From the NCBI GenBank assembly GCA_964106915.2, contig OZ066914.1: a DNA stretch of 64,000 bases; one strand, given 5' to 3'. The position numbers and the translations under genes were made by a program. Shown here one piece after another: positions 9,994-62,629 of the stretch; the first letter of the stretch is position 1, and the number at the start of each line of letters is the position of its first letter. The notes under the pieces were generated by a model that was given only the letters and a program-made list of their open reading frames with translations, ran no database searches and had not been told where the DNA came from. Source of the stretch: Podarcis gaigeae. Lineage: Eukaryota.

Positions 9994-10475
9994 TAATCTG
10001 TTTCCAGAGCACAAGGCAAGGTTGAGTTCTGTAGGACATAGAGAACTCTTGAGTAACATCACCATGGCAAGACTGGACCTTGCTTTGTAGTCAATTGAGA
10101 AACTAAATTGCACAGCATTTCTATTGACTGCAAATCCCCACAGCATGATACCTTGGCACTGGGAAATTAGGAGTTCCTCAGCTTTTCTTCTTTGCTAAGA
10201 GCTTACAAGGGTGAATGGGTTTTTTTTACTGGTAGAACTGTGGGTTCCTGTTCCTCACTTAAGGAGGCTTATCCCCAAACCTTGTGGCAGAGTAAGGCAT
10301 TAATACTTTTTGCTGTGGGGGGCATGCAGATTGGCTTTGCCTTGAATTGCCCACCAGGGGGTTTGAAGGAACACGGACAAGCTGTTGCATTGTAATCCAT
10401 GTATGCTGGCTGTCTAAGGCAGGGTTCAGCAACCTTTTTCAGCCATGGGCTGGTCCACCGTCCCTCAGACCATGT

Positions 10476-10847
10476 TGTGAGAAGTCGTTCGTGGAAACAA
10501 ACAGACAAAGGACTTCAATATAAGGTTAACCCTTTTATTAGTCGCGTTTGCAAAGGCGGACCCTCCGTACCCGTGGATACGAAGAGCCCCGTTCAGGCGT
10601 AGGCGCAGCAGTTTTATCCCTACAGCTGCCGCCCCTCTCTCAGAGGCTTGGCTTACAATCTACTTATCAGAGTTCAACACATTTCTAATACATTGTCCAC
10701 TCTACACTAACCACTTCATCTATTATCAGATATGGGCCTACGCCCCTTGGATTTCTTTATCCTGTGTACGCAGCTCATGGGGACTTTCCAGACTGAGTTT
10801 GAGGCACACCCTCGCTTGTAATTTTTCCTTTATTTCTTAATCTCACA
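10476..10847 (-). repeat. ERV 3' LTR
   Basis: Direct repeat of 15524-15895. Minus-strand AATAAA at 10534-10539, TATA-like GATAAAA near 10612-10618, kB motif GGGACTTTCC at 10780-10789. Confidence 0.97.
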
Positions 10848-11859
10848 ATCCCCCCTCTCTTTGATACCTTGCCTCAAACTCACATAGCTGCTCCCAGTGA
10901 TTTCTCTCCTCCTCATCTGTCGGTATGGGTTCGTATCTCATTGCCATTAGTTGAGTGGTTACATGCCGCTGGGCTATTAGGGAGAGTGAGTTGTTAATAG
11001 TCTTAACGAAAATGGGCAATACACAGGGGATTAGTACGCATCCAGCGGCTATTAACCCAATTAAAGCTACAATGGCTTGTAATCCAGGTAATTTTGGAAA
11101 CCATGAGCTGAATAATTCCTTGAAGTTAAGGCCTTCCCATGTTTGCACAGGAACATGCGCTAACTTTATCATTCGGTCAGCTATATCTTTTACTACCCTT
11201 CCGCTATCATCTATTTCAATACAGCAATTTGTTAGATTAAATTTTCCACAAACCCCGCCTTCTTTCGCTAATAAATAATCGAGCGCTAATCTGTTTTGCA
11301 TAATATAGGTACGGCTTTTTGCACTTTCCTTAGCGAGTTTTGTTAAAGCGGCAGCGGTTTCATTAGTTATAATTTCTACTACAGCTTGTAAGCGAATAAT
11401 ACGATTTAATAGATAAATTGGGTCCCTCCCAAAAGATCCCGCTGTTCCATCATTAGCCCAAGTTGCGGGACCATAATATTGAATTATTCTTTCGGGGGGC
11501 CACTCATTATCCTGCCATGTCCCTATGTGAATCGCCCTCTTTCTCCTGGGCCCAATTTCTTCATATACAGGCATACCCAGCTTAGCTTTCGTCTCTAAGG
11601 GGAGTAAGAAGAAGCTGGGTCGAAGGGTGGTCAATACACAGGACCCTACCCAATTTAGAGGCAGCCTGTTATATGCATACCCCCCACATGCCCAATAAAA
11701 TCCATCTGGGGTTGTCCATTCCTTCGAGGTGTTTTGGGGGTCCTGGAGAAAGGTCATGTTAATCATGTTAGCTAATGCAGGTGGCCATTCTCTGGTAATG
11801 TTATCTGAACTCCACCATTGCTTATCATTCCACTGTCCCACACAAGGGGTATCTCCCAC
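10843..11859 (-). pseudogene. env: Env remnant (C-terminal SU plus complete TM), ERV3/HERV-R-like; signal peptide and N-terminal SU deleted
   Basis: Furin site RRKR; WPPERIIQYYGPATWA and LNRIIRLQAVVEIITNETA segments recognised as ERV3-type; immunosuppressive domain QNRLALDYLLAKEGGVC; CGKFNLTNCC; hydrophobic anchor IVALIGLIAAGCVLIPCVLPIFV. Confidence 0.93.
10848..10863 (-). other. ERV polypurine tract
   Basis: Minus-strand AAAGAGAGGGGGGA, separated by one T from the 3' LTR. Confidence 0.9.
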
Positions 11860-11861
11860 CT

Positions 11862-13314
11862 TGGTGCTCCCCTCTCTTTTGGGCCAAGACCCCTACAGCA
11901 GTCTGGGAACCAATCGTTACATACAAGTGGAACGGTTGCTGAAGATTGGGCAGTGCTAAGACCGGGGCCCCGATCAGTGTCCTTTTTATTTCTTCCCATT
12001 TTAATCCATCCTCCTGTTCCCATGTTACCTTTTCGTCCCCAATGAGTTTTTGATTTAAAAATTGAACCAATTTTGCATATTGGTCTATCCACAATCTACA
12101 GTATCCCAGTAGTCCTAACATCCTCCTCACGTCTGTTTTATTTCTTGGGGGTTGCAATTCCAAAATTCCCTTAACTCTCTCTGGGTCTAGTTTTCTTGTT
12201 CCTCCCTCCAACAGATGCCCTAAATATTTTACTCTCTTTTGCACGAACTGCAGTTTTTCCTTTGACACTTTTACTCCTAATTTTCCCAACCAGTTCAATA
12301 ATCTTATAGAATCCTGCCTCACTTCTTTTTCTTTTTCTCCTATCAATAACAGATCATCCACATATTGCAACAGACGGTTATGGCTAGTGGGAACGAAGTC
12401 AGCCAGCTTCTCTCCTATTGCCTGTCCAAAGAGAAGTGGACTCTCCGTATACCCCTGGGGCAAGACTGTCCATCTGTACTGCTGTTTTCTGCCTGTCTTT
12501 GTATCTTCCCATTCAAAAGCAAACAAATCCCGACTCTCAATGTCCAAAGGACATGCCCAGAATGCATCCTTTAGATCTATTACTGTATACCATCGAGTGG
12601 AGGGGGGGGATACGGCTAAGGAGAGTATACGGGTTGGGTACCACTGGAAAACGGAACTACTATATTGTTTACATTTCTCAGATCTTCAACCATCCGATAT
12701 TTTCCGTCCTTTTTCTGTACCGCTAGGATGGGGGAATTAAAAGGTGACATGGTAGGTTCCAATAGTCCTTGTTTTAATAACCCATCCACCACTGGCTGCA
12801 GTCCCATTCTTCCCTTCCGGGTCATAGGGTACTGAGGGGTCCATGACTGGGTGATTCCTGGTTTTACTATGATCTTAATGGGGGCTATATCTAGTTTTCC
12901 CACCGTTCCACCACCTGTCCATACTATTGAATCTATTTGTCCTTCATCTTCCTCTCGTAAAAGATACATGGGGGTCCCTAAATCTAAGTCCATTAGTCGG
13001 AACCCCAATTCTACCATCAGATCTCTTCCCAACAAATTTATCCCTGATTCGGGTATAAACAATAATGACCCTTTCACTGATCGGTCTCCTCTTGTTATAG
13101 TGGTTTCCTCTAACTGTATAACTTCTTTCGCCTTACCGCTTACTCCCACCACTTTCAAATTTGACGTTGTCTTGCGTACCCCAGAAATGGGTGTACAAAC
13201 GGAAGACCGAGTTGCTCCTGAGTCTACCAGAAAGACCAATGATTTTCTAGAGGGCCCCACACATAAATTCACCAGTGGCTCATTCCGGGCCCTCCGGACT
13301 GAGCCGGAGGTTTC
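11862..13314 (-). pseudogene. pol: ERV pro-pol: protease plus reverse transcriptase, frameshifted, truncated before RNase H proper and integrase
   Basis: Protease FLVDSGA and NLLGRDL; RT motifs SPFNSPILAVQK, YRMVEDLR, IDLKDAF, LPQGY and YVDD. Two frame changes between ~12600 and ~12655, one in a G8 run. In frame with gag across the TAG at 13315-13317. Confidence 0.93.
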
Positions 13315-15058
13315 CTATTCGTATAAACTAAACAACTCTGCCACTCCAGTGTCCTCCTCCGTCTCCGGTTGTCTTTTCGTCTGACTCCCCCTTCCTACAT
13401 TGTTTTTCTCCTGAATTTGAGTCCTCGGAGTCCGGCATTCTCGGGCAAAATGGCCAGGTTTGTTACACCTATAGCAAATAACACCGGGGCCCTGAGAATA
13501 GTTCCCCCGTCCTCTTCCCCTTCCTCGATACCCTATATATCCCTGCCCTCTGGTGGACTCTTCTTTAAATTGTTTTGGATTTTCCCACGCTTTCTGCAAC
13601 GTGGCTGCCATCATTTGACATTTCTGCTTGTTTTTGACTGCCTCTCGGTTTACATAAACCTGTTGGGCAGTTCTCACTAGTTCTATGATGGCAGCATCCT
13701 GCCAATTCATTTTTTGAAGTTTCTTTTGAATATCTGGCCACGCCTTTGTGACAAACTGCATTTTTAAAAGATTATCAAATGCCGCCGAATCCGGCGCCAC
13801 CCCCGAATATTTAGTCAAGTGGTCTCTGATTCTCTGTATAAAATCGCCAGGCGATTCCTCTTTCTGTTGGTTGACCTCAAACGCTTTAGTTAGGTTCGTG
13901 CTTTGAGGTACAGCTCTTTTAATTCCTTCTAAGATCATTTCTTTCAAGTCCTTCATGTGGGTCTGATGGGTGTCATCATTAATATCCCAATTAGGGTCGG
14001 CTATTGGATACTTTACATCCGCCGCGACCGCTCCCTGTTGTGCCTGTTGTCGGGTGTCCCAATAGTTCATAGCCGCCCTCCTGATCATGGCTTTTTCCTC
14101 CGGGGTAAACAAATGTCCCAGAATGTACATCAGTTCTGTGTATGTATATAGGTGTGGCCCCATCCACATTTGCAGGAGGTTAGCGACCTCCTGACTATTC
14201 TCATGTAATTTTGGCAGAGTCTGTTTTAGTTCTCTAAGTTCTGATGGCTTAATGGGACTGACCACATATACCATGACTGGCTGTCCGTTAGCATTGATAC
14301 CTCCTGGTGTTTCTCTAAGTGGATAACTCTGGACCGGAGAATCACTATTGACTCCAAATCTAGCGGGACTAAATGGTAAGTTTTCTACGTCCCTCTTTAG
14401 TTGGACTAGTTCTCTTTGTAGCCTAGGATAGGGAGGCGGAGCGGATGGGGTACTGAACTCGCCTGTTGATCCTCCCTCCCCTTCCCTACCTAAAACTTTG
14501 GTCTCTATTTCTCTCCCTTGTCCCTGACTTCTAACCGGTGCATCTAATGGTATGTAGGGGAGGAGCATCGGTGTGCCAGGTGTTACTGAGGGAGGTTGAA
14601 CCAAAGGGAGGGGGATCCGTGTGCTCGGTACGACCGGGGGAGGTTGAACCGAGGGAACCGGTTTCTGTTCATTCTCCGACTCGTCCTCCTTAGTCCTCAC
14701 AGGGAGTTGCTTAAGAGGTGGGGGGGTCCGGTCCAAAAAACCAGACGTGAAACCACACTTCCAAATAAGGCTTCTCCCTGTTCCTCTTATTTTCTATAAG
14801 GTACTTTTTCAATTGTGTCATCCAATACCTTTCAGTCTCCCCCTCAGGGTTCCAGTTGTACATTTTGTCCGACCCTATAGGGTATTTTAGCCAAATCACC
14901 CTACAGAAGTTAATCATAGTCACTTTTGACAAACCAACTGTATATTGTCTCATATAATCCTCATTCCATTGTATTAATACTTGTCCTAATGGACTATTAG
15001 GGTCTATAGGACCCTTCACATTTATCTCCTTCTGTCTCTTACTTTGACCCTTACCCAT
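13315..15058 (-). pseudogene. gag: ERV gag (MA, proline-rich region, CA, NC) with one frameshift near 14720-14740
   Basis: Myristoylation start MGKGQS, late-domain cluster PSAPPPYPRL, MHR-like QQKEESPGDFIQRI, single zinc knuckle CYRCNKPGHFAREC, amber stop. Confidence 0.92.
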
Positions 15059-15269
15059 GGTTTACAATGTCTCCAATTTCACTCTCTATCACAATCACAC
15101 GGAATCGCCTGGCCGCTTCCCTCGCGGGATAGACGGAACCGCAAGCTAATCCTCTCGTCAGGGCAGAGCCCTGATCCACACTCACGGGTCCGTATGGAAC
15201 CTCTCTTTCACTCAAGAGACGAGTCTCTCACCCCCTCCCCGTAACACAGTCTACAAAATTCTCATGTCT

Positions 15270-15277
15270 ACTCACCC
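15270..15277 (-). promoter_or_regulatory. Candidate major splice donor in the ERV leader
   Basis: Minus-strand GG|GTGAGT between the PBS and the gag ATG, the usual position of the env donor. Confidence 0.5.
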
Positions 15278-15501
15278 AATACAGTCCAGCGCCGCTTCTC
15301 GTGACTAGTGAACAGGCGGGCGTCCCCGCTGGGCTCTCGCGGTCCCTGACCGCTAATAATCGAGACTGTCTCTCCCACCTATATTGAGTCCTGTCTTAGC
15401 CCTTGTGGATCACTATGAACAAATCCCGGCCCCGAGCCACTCCGAAAAGATGGAGGGGCGCCTGCCCGGGGTCTGAGTATCGCTCAAGCCACCCGTCAAG
15501 G

Positions 15502-15519
15502 GCCCCACGTTGGGCGCCA
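15502..15519 (-). other. ERV primer binding site, tRNA-Lys1,2
   Basis: Minus-strand TGGCGCCCAACGTGGGGC (18 nt), 4 nt downstream of the 5' LTR. Confidence 0.92.
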
Positions 15520-15523
15520 GAAT

Positions 15524-15895
15524 TGTGAGAAGTCGTTCGTGGAAACAAACAGACAAAGGACTTCAATATAAGGTTAACCCTTTTATTAGTCGCGTTTGCA
15601 AAGGCGGACCCTCCGTACCCGTGGATACGAAGAGCCCCGTTCAGGCGTAGGCGCAGCAGTTTTATCCCTACAGCTGCCGCCCCTCTCTCAGAGGCTTGGC
15701 TTACAATCTACTTATCAAAGTTCAACACATTTCTAATACATTGTCCACTCTACACTAACCACTTCATCTATTATCAGATATGGGCCTACGCCCCTTGGAT
15801 TTCTTTATCCTGTGTACGCAGCTCATGGGGACTTTCCAGACTGAGTTTGAGGCACACCCTCGCTTGTAATTTTTCCTTTATTTCTTAATCTCACA
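15524..15895 (-). repeat. ERV 5' LTR
   Basis: Identical to 10476-10847 except A15718 versus G10670; adjacent to the PBS. Confidence 0.97.
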
Positions 15896-50094: not shown

Positions 50095-50694
50095 TGTGCT
50101 GGACCCGGGGGAAAGGTACCGTGAGCGTAGTCTGAGTCCACACGAAGAGGGGCGAGGTCCGAGGCGGAGAGCCGGGCGGGGAACAGGAACGCTGGAACAG
50201 GAGGCCGAGCAGGGAACAGGAACACCGGATGGTCAGGAACAGGAGGCCGAGCAGGGATCAGGAACACAGGCAGGTCCAAAGCCAACAACGACGTTGCTCC
50301 CGCAACCTGGGACCGGGCTGACTGGGCTTTTATCCTCTTCTAAGGCCAGGGGCGGTCCCGGCCCCCAGGAGCCCCGCCTCCTCTGGCCTTAAGACGAGCA
50401 CTCCTCCTGGGAGCAACCAGTTCCCTTCGCCTCTCTGCCCTAAGCCTCTGCAGATCAGGAGAGGCCGAAGGGTTACTGGGCCCTGGAGGAGGCTCACCTG
50501 TAGCCACTGAGTCCTCAAGCCCCTCTGGGGCCAGAAGGGTTTCACCTGGGGCCAGCTCCTGGTGCTCTGCCACAGGTGCAGGCTCTTCAGCATCTAGGCC
50601 TTGCCCCAGTTCAGCCGGCCCTGGAGGCGGGGACTCCTGTGCAGGCTGGGATTCCTCTGGTTCATCCTCTGAATCGGAATCCCAGGCCATCACA
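50095..50694 (-). mobile_element. 600-bp solo LTR (probably Gypsy) carrying an ORF across its U3 region
   Basis: TGTG...CACA ends with imperfect 8-bp inverted termini; perfect 5-bp TSD TCAAT (50090-50094, 50695-50699); TATA-like GGATAAAAG at ~50327-50335 (minus); pyrimidine-rich tandem repeats downstream. Confidence 0.85.
50340..50693 (-). CDS. LTR-encoded 117-codon ORF: acidic/proline-rich, then arginine-rich (RRSARL)
   Basis: Open from LTR base 2 (GTG ATG G) to a TAG just before the TATA-like box. Expression is not shown. Confidence 0.45.
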   Translation of the reverse strand: MMAWDSDSEDEPEESQPAQESPPPGPAELGQGLDAEEPAPVAEHQELAPGETLLAPEGLEDSVATGEPPPGPSNPSASPDLQRLRAERRRELVAPRRSARLKARGGGAPGGRDRPWP

Positions 50695-55508: not shown

Positions 55509-55878
55509 TGAAATATACTCAGAGTCGCAAAGTGATTTCATGCTCTTTATTCAGCTCATAGTGGTGAGGAGGAATTAATGAATGTCCCCTCAAAGTATCT
55601 GCTTTATATACATTATTTACACAATGGGCTGCACATGATTGGCTAATTCTGGAATTCTACTGTAAGCCAATCAGGTTGTGGATTCACTTATATCTGGAGC
55701 ATGATTGGGTGGTTCCTGCCAACCAATCATATTGCTGCATTGTTCTAGGACCAATCAGACTGCTGCATTCTGAATCCTATTGTTCTAGGACCAATCAGAC
55801 TGCTGCAATTTGGATCCTATTGTTCTAGGACCAATCAGACTGCTGCAGTTTGGATCCTATTCAACTCAGTACATAACA
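55509..55878 (-). repeat. Gypsy 3' LTR
   Basis: TG...CA; three 40-bp CCAAT-containing repeats; minus-strand TATATAAA and AATAAA. Confidence 0.97.
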
Positions 55879-55890
55879 CCCCTCCCCTCT
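55879..55890 (-). other. Gypsy polypurine tract
   Basis: Minus-strand AGAGGGGAGGGG abutting the 3' LTR. Confidence 0.9.
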
Positions 55891-58800
55891 AAGTTCCAGT
55901 CCTGCCCGGGAGGTCGCATTCATAGTCCTCGAGGTACGCCGGCGGCCTACGTGTGCGTTGTGGCCTGGGGTGTTCCCTGGTCCGGGGTTCAGGTTCTGGC
56001 TCGTGTTCCAAGGATGCTGGCTGTGATGGGCCTGTTTGGTCTGGCGCAACCGGCTCGCTCAGTCGTGGTTCTGGCTCCGGTGTCCTTTTGGCCTCGCAGG
56101 TCCTCTCTGTATTTACTGATTCTGCCTCTCCTGCTGCCCCCTCCTGCTCTATGGGCCCCGCTGTTCCCTTGGGACTCCTCTGACCTTTCCTCCTCCTGGT
56201 TTTCTCCCGGGAATCGTCGCCGTATCTGGTCGCAGTGGCGGCGCCAGCATTGCCCCCCATCCGTTAGCACCTCGTATGACACGGGGCCAGTGACCCTGGT
56301 GACTGTGGCAGGTACCCATGCTGGGCCTGCCCCAAAATTCTTTGCGTACACTAGGTCCTGGGCCTTGAAGGTCCAGGGGTTCCTGCCTTCCCCCACCACT
56401 ACCTCATCCTGAGCTCTATCAGGGTGAAGGCGGTCCAATCTGATTGCAAGGCGGCGACCCATTAGTAGTTCAGCGGGGCTCCGGCCAGTTGTTGAGCTGG
56501 GGGTGCTGTGCTGTGCTAGGAGGAATGTGGCAAGGCGGTACTCCCAATCCCCTTGCGTCATGCGGCGAAGGGTGTCCTTGGTGGTCCGCACCATGCGTTC
56601 TGCTTGGCCATTGGTGGCAGGGTGGAATGGCGCTGAACGGATGTGGCGGATGGCGTTCTGCGCTGTGAAGGTTTGGAATTCTCCTGACGTAAATGCAGTC
56701 CCATTGTCTGAGACGAGAGTGTCAGGGAGCCCGTGGGTTGCAAAGAGCCTGCGTAGTACCTGGATGGCTGTGGATGTAGAAGTGGACGGTACCAGTGCAA
56801 CTTCCAGCCATTTGGTGTAGGAGTCCACCACTATGAAGAATGTTTTCCCCTGAAAGGGGCCAGCGAAGTCCACATGCAGGCGTGACCATGGTGCTCGGGT
56901 GGACTCCCAGGACTGGACTGGGGCCCTTGGGGGATCTGGGCGGGATTCTTGGCAGGCCTGGCAGTGTTTGACCCAGGCCTCTATCTCTCCATCGATCCCT
57001 GGCCACCACACATAACTCCTGGCCAGGGCCTTCATTCTTACTACCCCTAGGTGTGTCTCGTGTAGGGCTGTGAAGACCCTTTTGCGGAGGGGCTGGGGAA
57101 CAACGACCCTGCTTCCCCATAACAGGCACCCCTTGTGGGCCGACAGTTCATGTTTGCGGGTTGTGTAGCCAGCGAATTCTGGCCCAGGACTGCTGCTGGG
57201 CCATCCCCTCCACACCCAGTCCAGGACCCGGGAGATGACCCTATCTTTCTTGGAATGGTGTGCAACTTCTTGTGCCTGAATGGGGCGGTCAGGAAGCAGC
57301 TCCAGGCTCATAACCTCTTGTGCAGGTGCTGGGTCGGGGCCTGTTTCTGGTAGTGGTAGCCTGCTGAGGGCGTCCGCATGGCCCATCGCTTTCCCCGGGC
57401 GGTGAATCAGTGCATACTGGTAGCTGGCAAGGAAAATTGACCACCTGAGGACACGAGGAGACAGCACTTGGGGGGGTCTGCTTTTCGGGAGCAAACAAGC
57501 CAAGCAACGGCTTGTGGTCAGTCACCACGGTGAAGGGCCGCCCGTACAAGAAATCATGGAATTTTTTTACTCCCTTCACAATTGCGAGCCCCTCCTTGTC
57601 TATTTGCGAGTAGTTCCGCTCGGTTGCGTTGAGTGTCTGGGAAAAGTATGCTACCGGTACCTCTCTCCCATCCGGGAGTTGGTGTCCCAGGACAGCGCCA
57701 ATGCCATAGGGCGAGGCGTCGCATGCTAGCACCACCGGCAGCCTCTCGTTGAAGTGTGCCAAGACCGAGTTTGAGACAAGCAGGTCCTTGACTGCCTGGA
57801 ATGCAGCCTCCTGGCGCTGGCCCCACACCCAAGGGGCCCGCTTGTCCAGGAGTCTGTGTAGGGGCTCTGCTACCGCCGCTTTGTGGGGAAGGAAGGAATG
57901 GTAAAAGTTCAATAGTCCCAAGAAGGCCTGAAGTTCAGTCTTGCTCTTGGGTGCTGGGGCATCACAAATGGCCCGTACCTTGTCCCCAGTTGGGTGGACC
58001 CCTTCTGCGTCCACCATAAATCCCAGAAAGTCCACCTGAGGCACTCCTAGTAGACATTTTTCCCGCTTCACCTTGAGACCCGCCATCTGGAAACGGTGCA
58101 GAACGGTGTGGAGGCGGTCCTCAAACTCCTCTGGTGTGGGCCCGGCAATCAACACATCATCGAAGAAGGGGGTGACGCCAGGAATCCCTTTAAGGAGCAA
58201 GTCCATTAGATTCTGGAATATGCCTGGTGCCACACTGACACCGAATTGCAGCCGCTTTACCCTGAATGCTCCTCTGTGCATCACAATTGTCTGTGCCTCT
58301 GCTGTGGCCTCATCTACTGGAAGCTGTTGATATGCTTGGGCCAAGTCCAGCTTGCCAAAAATTTTCGACCCAGCCAGGGTGGCAAGGACATGGCTGACCA
58401 CTGGCACTGGGTATGCATGGGCCGTGAGGGCCTTGTTTATGGTACATTTGTAGTCTGCGCAGATGCGGACTGAACCATTAGGCTTGACGGGTGTGACGAT
58501 TGGGGTTTCCCAGGGGGCATTAGGCACCGGCTCCAGCACTCCTTGCTCCACAAGCCGGTCCAATTCCTCGTCTATACGGGGTTTCAGGGCGAACGGGACC
58601 CGGCGGGCCTTTAGCCTGACCGGTCGTACTGCGGGGTCAAGCTGTAGAGCAATGGGGGGGCCCGTATACTGTCCCAATTTCCCATCGAAAACCTCTGGAA
58701 ATTCCTTGCATATGGCATCCACGTCCACTTGTAAGGTAGTGTGGTTCACCCCGGTGATGGCTAGCCCCAGTGGTCCAAACCATGCCAATCCCAGTAAGCT

Positions 58801-59958
58801 AATGTAGGGGCCCTTGACCACAAGCAAGTCCAGCTGCCGCGTCCGCCCTCGGTATTGCACCCTGAAGGTCCCCACCCCCATTGTGGGGACCTTACGTTTC
58901 TGGAAGTCCCGGAGGGTGAATGGGGCCGGCCTGAGTTTGGGACCCCCAGTAGGACACAGTTTCCTTAACGTCCTTGCCGAGATTATGGATAGATTTGAAC
59001 CCGTGTCAAGCTCCATGCGGCATGGGGCCCCCTCTATCCGTACCTCTACATAAATTTTCTCTATGTTGGGGTAGGGCAACTGGTATACCTGGACGTCCGT
59101 GAGCTCCGTCGAGTTGCCTTGGTGCGTTGGGCCCCGGGACCTGGGGCTCTTGGATTGGTCATCTGATGCCTGGCGTCGGGTGGGCCGAGCCCGACACACC
59201 CGGGCGATGTGTCCCAATTTTCTGCACTGCCTGCACTCTACGTTGCGGAAACGGCAGGTCCTCCTCTCGTGACTTTCCCCGCAGCTTGTGCAGTTCCCTC
59301 CTTCTCGTCGAGGCAGCTGTGGTATGTGGGCTGCTTGAGTGTGCTGCTGTACTCGGTGCACTTCCTCCCTGTCAGATCCTGAGTCGTCGGTGAGGTCTTC
59401 GTGGTGAACCCTCGGTTGGGCTGGCAGGCTCGGCCGTGCCTCTTGTGTCGACCTCTTGGCAGCTTCCGTTGCCAGGGCCTCCTCCAGAGCGACCTGGAAC
59501 GTTAGGTCCTTCTTAGCGTAGAGGCGTCGTTGCAGCTTCTCATCCTTCATGCCACCGACGAGGCGGTCCCGAAGCATGTTCTCCAGCTCTGAAAAGTTGC
59601 AGAACTGGGCGGCTTGGCGGAGAGAGGTCACAAACCCAGTTATGGTTTCCCCAGGGGCTTGCCGCTTTGCGTAGAAGGCATTTCGACGAGCCACCACTGA
59701 GGGCTGTGGCGAAAAGTGCCACTTAAGCTATTCCATTATTCTTTTGTATGGAACAGTAGCGACGTCTTCAGGCGCAAGGAGAGCCCGGGCGATTTCAAAT
59801 GTCTCCTCTCCGCAGACGCTGAAGAATATCGCCCTCTTCTTGGCGTCTTCTTCATCGGTGACCCCTTTGGCTTCTAGGAGGAAGGTAAAATGGGAGGCGT
59901 ACGCTTCCCAGTCTCCCGTTGCTGGGTTGAACGGCGAGAAGCTGCTGTCGGTTGCCAT
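55889..59958 (-). pseudogene. Gypsy gag-pol polyprotein disrupted by one in-frame TAG (59728-59730) and frameshifts (~57475 and probably ~56150)
   Basis: Gag LRDRLVGG and two zinc knuckles (CTSCGESHERRTC, CRQCRKLGHIARVC); protease LDTGS; RT KLDLAQAY, QFGV and FFDD; RNase H CDAS, KEGLA and TDHKPL; integrase HETH..CQAC, HVDF, SDNG and QAER; C-terminal RRPPAYLEDY in an alternative frame. Confidence 0.95.
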
Positions 59959-60064
59959 TCTGAGTTCCTTGTGTCCCGGAGCTGAAGCCTGGATACACGG
60001 TGCGAGGCAGCGGTGCGGCAGGTGGCGGTGCTGCGGTGCTGTGTGTGGCAGTCAGCTCAGCGGG

Positions 60065-60082
60065 ATCCCATCCTCGTCGCCA
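60065..60082 (-). other. Gypsy primer binding site, tRNA-Ser(GCU)
   Basis: Minus-strand TGGCGACGAGGATGGGAT, complementary to the vertebrate tRNA-Ser(GCU) 3' end, 1 nt from the 5' LTR. Confidence 0.85.
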
Positions 60083-60083
60083 G

Positions 60084-60449
60084 TGAAATATACTCAGAGT
60101 CGCAAAGTGATTTCATGCTCTTTATTCAGCTCATAGTGGTGAGGAGGAATGAATGTCCCCTCAAAGTATCTGCTTTATATACATTATTTACACAATGGGC
60201 TGCACATGATTGGCTAATTCTGGAATTCTACTGTAAGCCAATCAGGTTGTGGATTCACTTATATCTGGAGCATGATTGGGTGGTTCCTGCCAACCAATCA
60301 TATTGCTGCATTGTTCTAGGACCAATCAGACTGCTGCATTCTGAATCCTATTGTTCTAGGACCAATCAGACTGCTGCAATTTGGATCCTATTGTTCTAGG
60401 ACCAATCAGACTGCTGCAGTTTGGATCCTATTCAACTCAGTACATAACA
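60084..60449 (-). repeat. Gypsy 5' LTR
   Basis: Direct repeat of 55509-55878, adjacent to the PBS. Confidence 0.97.
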
Positions 60450-61094
60450 GATTTGGAGGCTTGGTGTCATCTATATGCAGTTTCTGTTCTTGTCCCCATC
60501 TAATCCAGCACTCTGCTTTCAACACAGTGCCCAGTCAAAAATGCCTGTGTCTCCTACAGTTAGTACTCAGTGATGTACTACAACAGTACATAGTATGAGG
60601 CCTGGGTGCCCTATCCTGGCTAATAGGAGTGGTTGCCATGGATGGAACTGGAATGAGGCAGGTGGGAGGAAACTTTGGATGGGTAGAGCTGTGAGAAGTG
60701 TCTTGCCCAAATGCCCAGTGCAGAGAGAAATTAAGCTCCTCACTGCAAGGGTTGTTTGTATCCAGTGCTAATCTGATAGCATAGCAGATTTTTGCTTATG
60801 CAACAGAAATTTTGCCTCCTTCTCCTCTCCTCCGTAGCAGCTTGTGCATTCTCAAAATATGCTTCAGAGGGTTGGAGGACCATTCTGAGGACACATGAGG
60901 AAAGGGAAAGGAAAGGAAAGGAAGATCCTGCTGCATTCATTGAAGTCTATGTGCACAGTGTTGAATACAAGCTTAAATGAACAAGTTGGTCATGACGGCA
61001 TGATTTTATGCAAGGCTTGGGACAGAACTAGGTTACAAGCCAGTCTGCATTTGTTCATAGATGACTAGTAGCCTTTGCTTCTTTATTTTGGAAT

Positions 61095-61501
61095 TGTCAG
61101 GGAACTGCCATCGGAAGAACAGGTGGTAGAAAGGCTCCAGGAGAATAGGAGAGACTCTGCAGCAGAAGAGGGAACCAGTAGGGGGAGAGCAGGAGCTCAA
61201 AGGGAAAGGGAGTCGGAGGGGAGGCTCTGGGATACTTCCAGTGAGAACAGTGAGGAGGTAACAAGACCCCCTTTAGGAACCCCCACCCCTCGCCGGAAGC
61301 TGTCACGCAGAGAGTCCAGGAGGCGCATGTCCGTCAAACAGCTTTTATGTTGGAGTAAGTTCCGTAGACGCCCACTGTCGGATACTACCAGCGACTGACG
61401 GAGTCATGCTTTGGGGGCTCCGTTAGAGACTCAGGTTGGCTGACCAGCCAAAACCCGGAGGGATCAAGCTTTACGCACAAGCAGCTCATTATCCCATCAC
61501 A
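61095..61501 (+). mobile_element. 407-bp solo LTR-like element carrying an ORF
   Basis: TGT...ACA ends; perfect 5-bp TSD GGAAT (61090-61094, 61502-61506); GC/CpG-richer than its flanks. Confidence 0.8.
61096..61398 (+). CDS. LTR-encoded 100-codon ORF: acidic, then TP/arginine-rich
   Basis: Open from LTR base 2 (VRELPSEEQ...TPTPRRKLSRRESRRR...SDTTSD*); no early ATG, so probably the tail of an ORF entering from the internal region of the parent element. Confidence 0.4.
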   Translation, partial: VRELPSEEQVVERLQENRRDSAAEEGTSRGRAGAQRERESEGRLWDTSSENSEEVTRPPLGTPTPRRKLSRRESRRRMSVKQLLCWSKFRRRPLSDTTSD

Positions 61502-62629
61502 GGAATCTTATCAACAGATATCCAAAACAGCTGGGGGGGGGAACTTGTTCAGCCTGCAATTTCTATTTTGGAACTGGGTCTAAAAGGTATCTTTTGTTTT
61601 TTCTTCTTCTTCACACCCCTCACTTTCCATAGTATCTTGTCTGATGTAGAGTTCCAAAGAACTCAAAAGCTTGTCACACACTTCTAACATCTTGGTTGGT
61701 TCCATAAATGTATTGCCCAACTGTGGATTATTGATTTCAGCGGGATCTAAGTTCAGCTAACTACTGAGTTCAACCCACAATCTGTAACAGTCACGTACAA
61801 AAAGCCTGTCATAGAGCACTAAGCTACATTGAACGATGTTGGGATCAAAGCCTTAGTTTTCATCCTGTTATATAATCCATGTGCTTGAATCCAAGCCAGT
61901 TTTCTGATTTCTTTTTTGCTCTTCCATTTAGAAGGAAAGAAGAGATACCACTCTTTATTGAACCCAAACTTATTTATTGCATCAGTTGTGTTTCTATCAT
62001 CAGTGAATATTTTTATGATTATATCAAAGCATTGACGTTCGGCATATCTGTGTCTGGAGCTTCAGTAATCCAGGCTTTATTCTGTGTAAGAAACCGAGAA
62101 ACCTAGGGAGCTAGTTTGTCTTCTGACCACTTTTCTTATTCATCTGTCAAAGTTGGCTGGATCACAAACCTTCTTTTGGCTGGGATTCATCTTCTTGTAT
62201 AGCCATTTGGAGCTGGGCTAATTGTTTGTTCTTGTTTTTTAATGCTTTGCTTGGCTTAGCACTGTCAAATTATTATACTCTGTACAAGCAACTTTGAAAT
62301 TTCTCCATGCCTGTTAACTTGCTCAGGAAGCACTGCATGCCAGGCATCTATTGGATCACGGCTGAACCTTTGATTGCTGCCTTACACATTTTCAGTCAAA
62401 CAACAGTCATTGTTAAAGTGGTTGTTTTGAGATTTGTTCTTCTGGATGCACATTCTCTTATTCAGGAACATCTGTACAAATGGTAGATACAGTATTGGAC
62501 AACCCCCCTGCTTTTGCAAGCAGATGGTAAAGCAACAACAAGAGGTCTGTTGAGCTGCTTGTTGCCATTCATGACTGTCAGGCCATGTTCAGCTTGCTGT
62601 GTTATAAGTTGTTTAGCCTGTGTTGAAGT

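Follow-up and report, generated by a model that had tools for sequence, protein, structure and literature searches.

An open frame in a lizard solo LTR is very probably the C-terminal tail of a chromovirus Pol

Positions 61095-61501 of a 64,000-nucleotide stretch of Podarcis gaigeae DNA (assembly GCA_964106915.2, contig OZ066914.1; hereafter the window) hold a solo LTR whose second frame is open for 100 codons, and raise the question of what this frame encodes. An earlier note on this DNA had taken it for a separate, LTR-encoded module, which it also saw in a second, unrelated LTR near 50.1 kb and supposed to be general to squamate Gypsy elements. The features that bear on this question are listed here by window position.

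61090..61094, plus strand: left copy of the target-site duplication (TSD), GGAAT, from the sequence; a single copy at the empty site in sequencing run X4
61095..61501, plus strand: solo LTR of family A, a lacertid chromovirus, with ends TGTCAGG and CATCACA; from read contigs
61096..61398, plus strand: 100-codon frame, very probably the C-terminal 100 residues of Pol, beyond the chromodomain (protein matches); residues 1-60 acidic, the last 40 Arg-rich
61279..61398, plus strand: best-conserved block, codons 62-100 (P63, RRE.RRR, LLCW, F89, PLS), from the homolog alignment
61374..61385, plus strand: putative self-primer at a putative U3/R boundary, where transcription would start; complementary to sequence after the LTR in other copies
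61502..61506, plus strand: right TSD copy, GGAAT, from the sequence and read contigs

The element is 407 bp long, begins with TGTCA, ends with TCACA and is bordered on each side by GGAAT, and so has both the TG...CA ends and the TSD of 4-6 bp by which a solo LTR is recognized. The insertion is genuine, because contigs of the empty site and contigs across the junctions are both present: in run X4 one contig joins 61089 to 61502, skipping 412 bases (407 plus 5) with 5 ambiguous letters, in run X6 a contig omits 414 bases with one letter in between, and in run X2 contigs span both LTR junctions. The GGAAT pair and the empty site bear out the earlier description of a Gypsy solo LTR with a 5-bp TSD. 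A cut-and-paste DNA transposon was rejected, the inverted ends amounting to just 5 bases and the sequence being in frame with Pol. The LTR sequence is highly repeated, matching 744, 453, 448 and 547 contigs in four sequencing runs with depth concentrated on the LTR, a depth that does not equate to copy number. In one further contig of run X4 four letters separate the LTR end from a following LTR start, as a tandem LTR or a two-LTR junction might produce.

Inspection of the sequence confirmed the earlier account of the frame, which starts at LTR base 2 with a Val codon, runs for 100 codons to a TGA at 61396-61398 and contains both WDTSSENSEE and the Arg cluster, TPTPRRKLSRRESRRR. Its length alone is only modestly unusual: among 3000 dinucleotide shuffles of the 407-bp LTR, frame 2 was open for 100 codons from the start in 2.2%, and some frame was in 26%. 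Pfam returned no family at E<=1 for either this frame or that of the 50.1-kb LTR, and the Protein Atlas gave no usable match for the window peptide (P0001), at a low recognition value.

A search of longer proteins with the window frame left 4 of 364 candidates within E<=0.01 (best E 6e-34), namely three Podarcis muralis Gypsy Pol proteins and one integrase fragment, all with an SH3_Tf2-1 domain and a chromodomain. P0001 aligns to residues 1181-1280 of P0003, a protein of 1280 residues, at 77% identity. The Pfam domains of family-A Pol stand in the order PR-RT-RH-IN-SH3_Tf2-1-Chromo, with the chromodomain at 1040-1088; PF00385 scores above cut-off in P0003-P0006 and in P0007, with HP1/CBX chromodomain matches. 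A chromodomain at the integrase C-terminus and a PR-RT-RH-IN order are the marks of a chromovirus. Among 28 family-A proteins, a count that excludes P0013 (a helicase, taken as a chance profile match) and P0014, 20 extend into the LTR part, each by way of a G/E-rich junction that ends EVD-VREL, and the remaining 8 stop or diverge ahead of it; 15 share the last residue of the window frame. The layout is thus a chromodomain, then about 87-98 residues, then the 100 residues coded in the LTR. The chromodomain-to-LTR junction is known here from predicted proteins, mostly UniRef gene models rather than paired-LTR DNA, and its G/E-rich stretch would be the polypurine tract in translation. Three of the 20 LTR-reaching proteins are Logan calls that fit single contigs (1425 of 1528, 3924 of 5113 and 4035 of 4419 nt), which argues against artefacts of spliced models, provided that Logan calling is intronless, as we infer.

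We conclude that the window frame is, very probably, the C-terminal tail of a lizard chromovirus Pol, and likely a relic of a disordered integrase tail whose translation would be confined to the 3' LTR of a full element; it likely does not represent a gene of its own. The continuity with pol that the earlier note had proposed to look for is present, running in frame from the chromodomain through the polypurine-tract region into the LTR part in 20 of the 28 proteins, and the separate module that it had envisaged is instead, very probably, a Pol C-terminus. In such an element, pol would continue across the polypurine tract and enter U3, reverse transcription would copy U3 into both LTRs, and recombination between the LTRs would leave one of them between the duplicated target bases. 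The tail, we propose, would stay on the integrase after processing.

A combined chromodomain and tail search of proteins of 704-2240 aa retained 3 of 1886 candidates, all from Podarcis, and a family-A tail profile run against 1.84 billion representatives at E<=0.001 retrieved 4 proteins (P0006, a Podarcis chromodomain protein, an ENA protein and a spurious-looking helicase), with no family-B protein, that is, none from the chromovirus family of the 50.1-kb LTR, among them. P0006 is a distant relative, at 49% identity, and in the Protein Atlas its part gave only chromodomain clusters, under 0.9. P0014, from an ENA contig of 680 bases, matches the LTR-coded tail at 33% over 116 columns, with VREL and LLCW kept, and is possibly the solo LTR of yet another family.

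Differences between copies indicate that frame 2 has been constrained as protein. Within the frame, 15 of 23 differences leave the frame-2 amino acid unchanged, where 6.75 would be expected (binomial p 0.0004), in a test that used the 23 in-frame rows among 40 differences listed of 88, with subfamilies and species mixed and sites non-independent. By comparison, 3 of 23 are synonymous in each of frames 1 and 3, and 16 of 23 are in the antisense frame that has the same third positions, as expected. Both indels inside the LTR among the differences listed (61409, 61469) fall 3' of the stop, and gaps within the frame occur in minor contigs (4 in record 1 of run X1, 2 in record 25 of run X6); one X6 contig omits 148 bases. 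At the protein level P63, RRE.RRR, LLCW, F89 and PLS are nearly invariant (15 to 18 homologs). The window copy itself matches none of the homologs at codons 15, 17, 18, 35, 43, 45, 53, 56, 57, 78, 87, 88 and 97. Codon 45, which supplies the W of WDTSSENSEE, is TGG, and the 18 homologs that cover it carry R or Q and in no case W; TGG where homologs have Arg is consistent with a CpG change.

We asked how far this tail corresponds to that of the second LTR, which lies on the opposite strand.

50095..50694, minus strand: solo LTR of family B, a second chromovirus family, 600 bp, TSD TCAAT; from the sequence
50340..50693, minus strand: 117-codon frame, matching Pol P0007 over its C-terminal 117 residues (96% identity in protein alignment)

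The family-B frame likewise starts at LTR base 2, a coincidence of register with a prior of about one in three, and its 117 codons are open in 4.5% of shuffles for frame 2 and in 69% for some frame. Of the 15 proteins in the family-B cluster, 5 extend into the LTR part, always at the Pol C-terminus. The two LTRs show no nucleotide similarity, as the earlier note had said (best blastn match between the 407-bp and 600-bp LTRs, E 0.35), and to call them unrelated holds for the LTRs, which cannot be aligned, but not for the parent elements, which are related chromoviruses with Pol proteins 48% identical over 917 aa. Comparison of the tails gave scores within the range of composition-matched shuffles: 114 of 2000 reached the score of the window pair, and 68 to 953 of 2000 reached those of four intact-family tails. 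Families A and B share the read-through layout and an acidic-then-basic composition, without a demonstrable motif between them.

These results weigh on the broadest form of the earlier proposal, that one homologous acidic/basic module with WD-S/TP-Arg motifs is common to squamate Gypsy LTR families. In both chromovirus families Pol does continue into U3 in one and the same register, each tail passes from an acidic first part to an Arg-rich one, and with Pol proteins 48% identical the read-through layout could come by common descent. The W of the supposed WD[ST] motif, however, is private to the window copy, the likeness of the tails does not rise above shuffles, and the family-A tail profile found no family-B protein. 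Nor is the module general to squamate Gypsy elements, for a Gypsy element of the window that we take, from its layout, to be Mag-like has just 3, 5 and 13 codons open from its LTR start; the retroviral LTR in the window opens at most 23 codons from its start. We consider a shared module unlikely. Of the protein-level conservation that the earlier note had suggested, constraint on frame 2 stands, and conservation across LTR families is unsupported.

A further possibility is a small protein in its own right, produced off the LTR promoter or by solo copies, after the manner of MMTV, whose LTR encodes one. The frame is still open in the window solo copy, and in family B an ATG stands at codon 2, with five Podarcis gene models (P0008-P0012) that begin there. 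Those models are automatic predictions; the fusion partner is Gag-type sequence in four and a receptor domain of the host in one, and they are probably prediction artefacts. In family A the first Met of the frame is codon 78, and none of 17 homologs has Met there.

The position of the transcription start bears on the same question. Loose contig ends that reach past 61508 occur in all four runs (4, 4, 3 and 2 contigs) and start with GACAGT, the complement of 61374-61379 (six bases); a pairing of 12 bases over 61374-61385 would depend also on the first PBS bases, which are read from the reach of the alignment over 61502-61508, and on copy differences that are common at two positions (61380, 61384). 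Together with the 3' junction in the proteins, these conserved ends would be an indirect sign that the LTR also occurs in pairs around gag-pol. In Tf1/Sushi elements a self-priming PBS is described as pairing with the transcript 5' end (PMC4600332, PMC6317226), and the family-A PBS is likely self-priming in this layout. Transcription of the LTR would accordingly start near 61374, in codon 93. A start there places nearly the whole frame in U3, such that the own LTR promoter of a solo copy could not express it; the frame would be translated only off the 3' LTR of a full-length element. An exact TATA or AATAAA is absent from the LTR, and a TTTTAT at 61343, about 30 bases ahead of the putative start, is a weak candidate. 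Folding of 61374-61513 was no better than that of shuffles (z -0.84). With the putative start inside codon 93 and the Met of codon 78 private to the window copy, we regard a separate protein as very improbable.

The target site at 61502-61508 matches the first 6-7 bases of the putative family-A PBS, a match that may be due to chance. Tf1 is described as able to insert, independently of integrase, at sites that resemble a PBS (PMC11042837); around 61095-61501, by contrast, the 5-bp duplication is clean and an empty allele exists.

Least probable of all is that the open frame is a by-product of a purine-rich, G+C-rich U3 that encodes nothing under selection, for although some frame is open this far in 26% of shuffles and neither Pfam nor the Protein Atlas recognizes it, composition would not account for an in-frame fusion to Pol in 20 proteins with a common last residue in 15, for the synonymous excess, or for blocks of invariant residues that persist even in tails at 49% identity.

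Having set the frame at the end of Pol, we considered what the tail might do. In an AlphaFold2 model of P0006, pLDDT is below 50 over residues 279-474, which is consistent with a disordered tail; the model is poor overall (mean pLDDT 49.7, 19 sequences), so that the low values over the tail lend weak support to disorder. Codons 75-92 fit the pattern of a bipartite NLS, and the tail carries candidate CK2-type, proline-directed and RRxS sites. The Arg-rich end could be a nuclear-import or nucleic-acid-binding tail of the integrase and the acidic Ser/Thr stretches kinase-modifiable linkers, an assignment that we hold at about even chances. A parallel is offered by the C-terminal tail of Ty1 integrase, which has a nuclear localisation signal (according to titles cited in PMC3605345) and is described as phosphorylated by CK2, with removal of the CK2 sites leaving mobility unchanged (PMC9673352). 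Ty1, unlike family A, is a Copia-type element.

Between the chromodomain and the LTR part (residues about 279-344 of P0006), family-A Pol carries two tandem units, each made of spaced aromatics, an acidic linker and a terminal xxGF. Twenty-one members, all of them close kin, continue for 40 residues beyond the chromodomain; every one has unit 1, and 20 have unit 2 (WxxxF-x9-FxGF). A strict FxGF in unit 1 is confined to P0006 and P0015, with L/M-x-GF in the other 19, and unit 2 falls short of the full D/ExExFxGF consensus. The linkers are 9 residues long, within the range of 8-16 for TND-interacting motifs (TIMs), and rich in D, E, S and T. The pattern, which was written from the published description after the sequences had been seen, occurs in 2 to 16 of 5000 shuffles per tail. 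In the P0006 model a low-confidence helix spans 279-285, in unit 1; unit 2 has none.

TIMs are described as a helix, an acidic linker of 8-16 residues and an FxGF that is needed for binding to LEDGF/HRP2 (PMC9987994), with F129 and F133 of the MLL1 helix standing ahead of an FxGF at 148-151 (PMC8022399). The family-A units resemble the TIM/IBM of MLL1, IWS1 and JPO2, which bind LEDGF/p75 and HRP2, in having aromatics four apart, an acidic Ser/Thr linker and FxGF, whereas the host motifs as described sit in chromatin and transcription proteins and the family-A units lie between chromodomain and LTR, outside the window DNA. A PDB sequence search with the tail profile gave no match at E<=10, and hence no direct match to solved TIM peptides; in open-licence full text we found no description of such motifs in retrotransposon integrases.

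The same proteins depart from the standard chromodomain cage. In family A the third cage residue is E in 21 of 21 matched proteins (of 28) and the first is non-aromatic in 10 of 21, so that the three cage aromatics of a type I chromodomain, as in HP1, are not all present; in family B the Y-W-Y cage is kept in 6 of 6 matched (of 15), and none of five members with a full tail has a TIM-like unit. Judging from sequence patterns, we suggest tentatively that family A may have swapped its targeting, losing cage residues and gaining two tandem TIMs and a U3-coded basic tail, with tethering to LEDGF/HRP2 or another elongation factor by mimicry. Such tethering would use the same host surface as lentiviral integrases, by way of a short linear motif. 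If the upstream motifs do bind domains of the LEDGF/HRP2 type, a retrotransposon would be picking its integration sites through the host's own linear motif, and the pair of families, one with motifs and no cage, the other with a cage and no motifs, would offer a direct genomic test of a change in chromovirus targeting.

Family A fits the vertebrate V-clade (Tf1/Sushi) of chromoviruses (PMC2774666), a placement made by features. The likeness extends to PR-RT-RH-IN with SH3_Tf2-1 and chromodomain, vertebrate host labels, LTR ends and a likely self-priming PBS. The Sushi att end patterns TGTYANR and CNTNACA, as tabulated in PMC3601003 (table 3), are fitted by TGTCAGG and CATCACA, and the 50.1-kb LTR fits neither exactly. 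Unlike Tf1/Sushi as described, family A has some 190-200 residues after the chromodomain, 100 of them coded in U3.

A Pol tail coded in U3 is one that, for vertebrate chromoviruses, we found no description of in open-licence papers. In plants, the gag-pol frame of CRM group A is described as crossing the polypurine tract into the 3' LTR (PMC3059260), and pol as extending into the 3' LTR in Beetle of beet and in the Reina-clade elements Bingo1-4 and Bingo7 (PMC3605345). Pol read-through into the 3' LTR is thus already known in plant chromoviruses, and here it occurs in two vertebrate families. Family A resembles Bingo in having its chromodomain upstream of the polypurine tract. What CRM encodes in its LTR is the CR targeting motif, which replaces the chromodomain, whereas family A retains an upstream chromodomain of standard fold and has an LTR part with no Pfam match; on these two grounds membership of CRM group A was ruled out. 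As in plant CRM elements, U3 would double as promoter and selected coding sequence.

For annotation, long open frames in lizard chromovirus solo LTRs would be read as Pol tails; gene predictors already build spurious-looking models from them, as P0008-P0012 illustrate.

Other elements of the window were noted in passing. The Mag-like element, at 55509-60449 on the minus strand, is a near full-length, non-chromoviral Gypsy with near-identical LTRs, pol in two frames and a pol stop before the LTR; its integrase ends just ahead of the polypurine tract in a tail that is acidic and then Arg/Pro-rich. An endogenous retrovirus occupies 10475-15888 on the minus strand, with LTRs at 100% identity across 300 compared bases and with gag, pol and env in separate, broken or partial frames. 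At 11-757, also on the minus strand, a frame is open for 248 codons and resembles what we take to be the tyrosine recombinase of a DIRS-type element.
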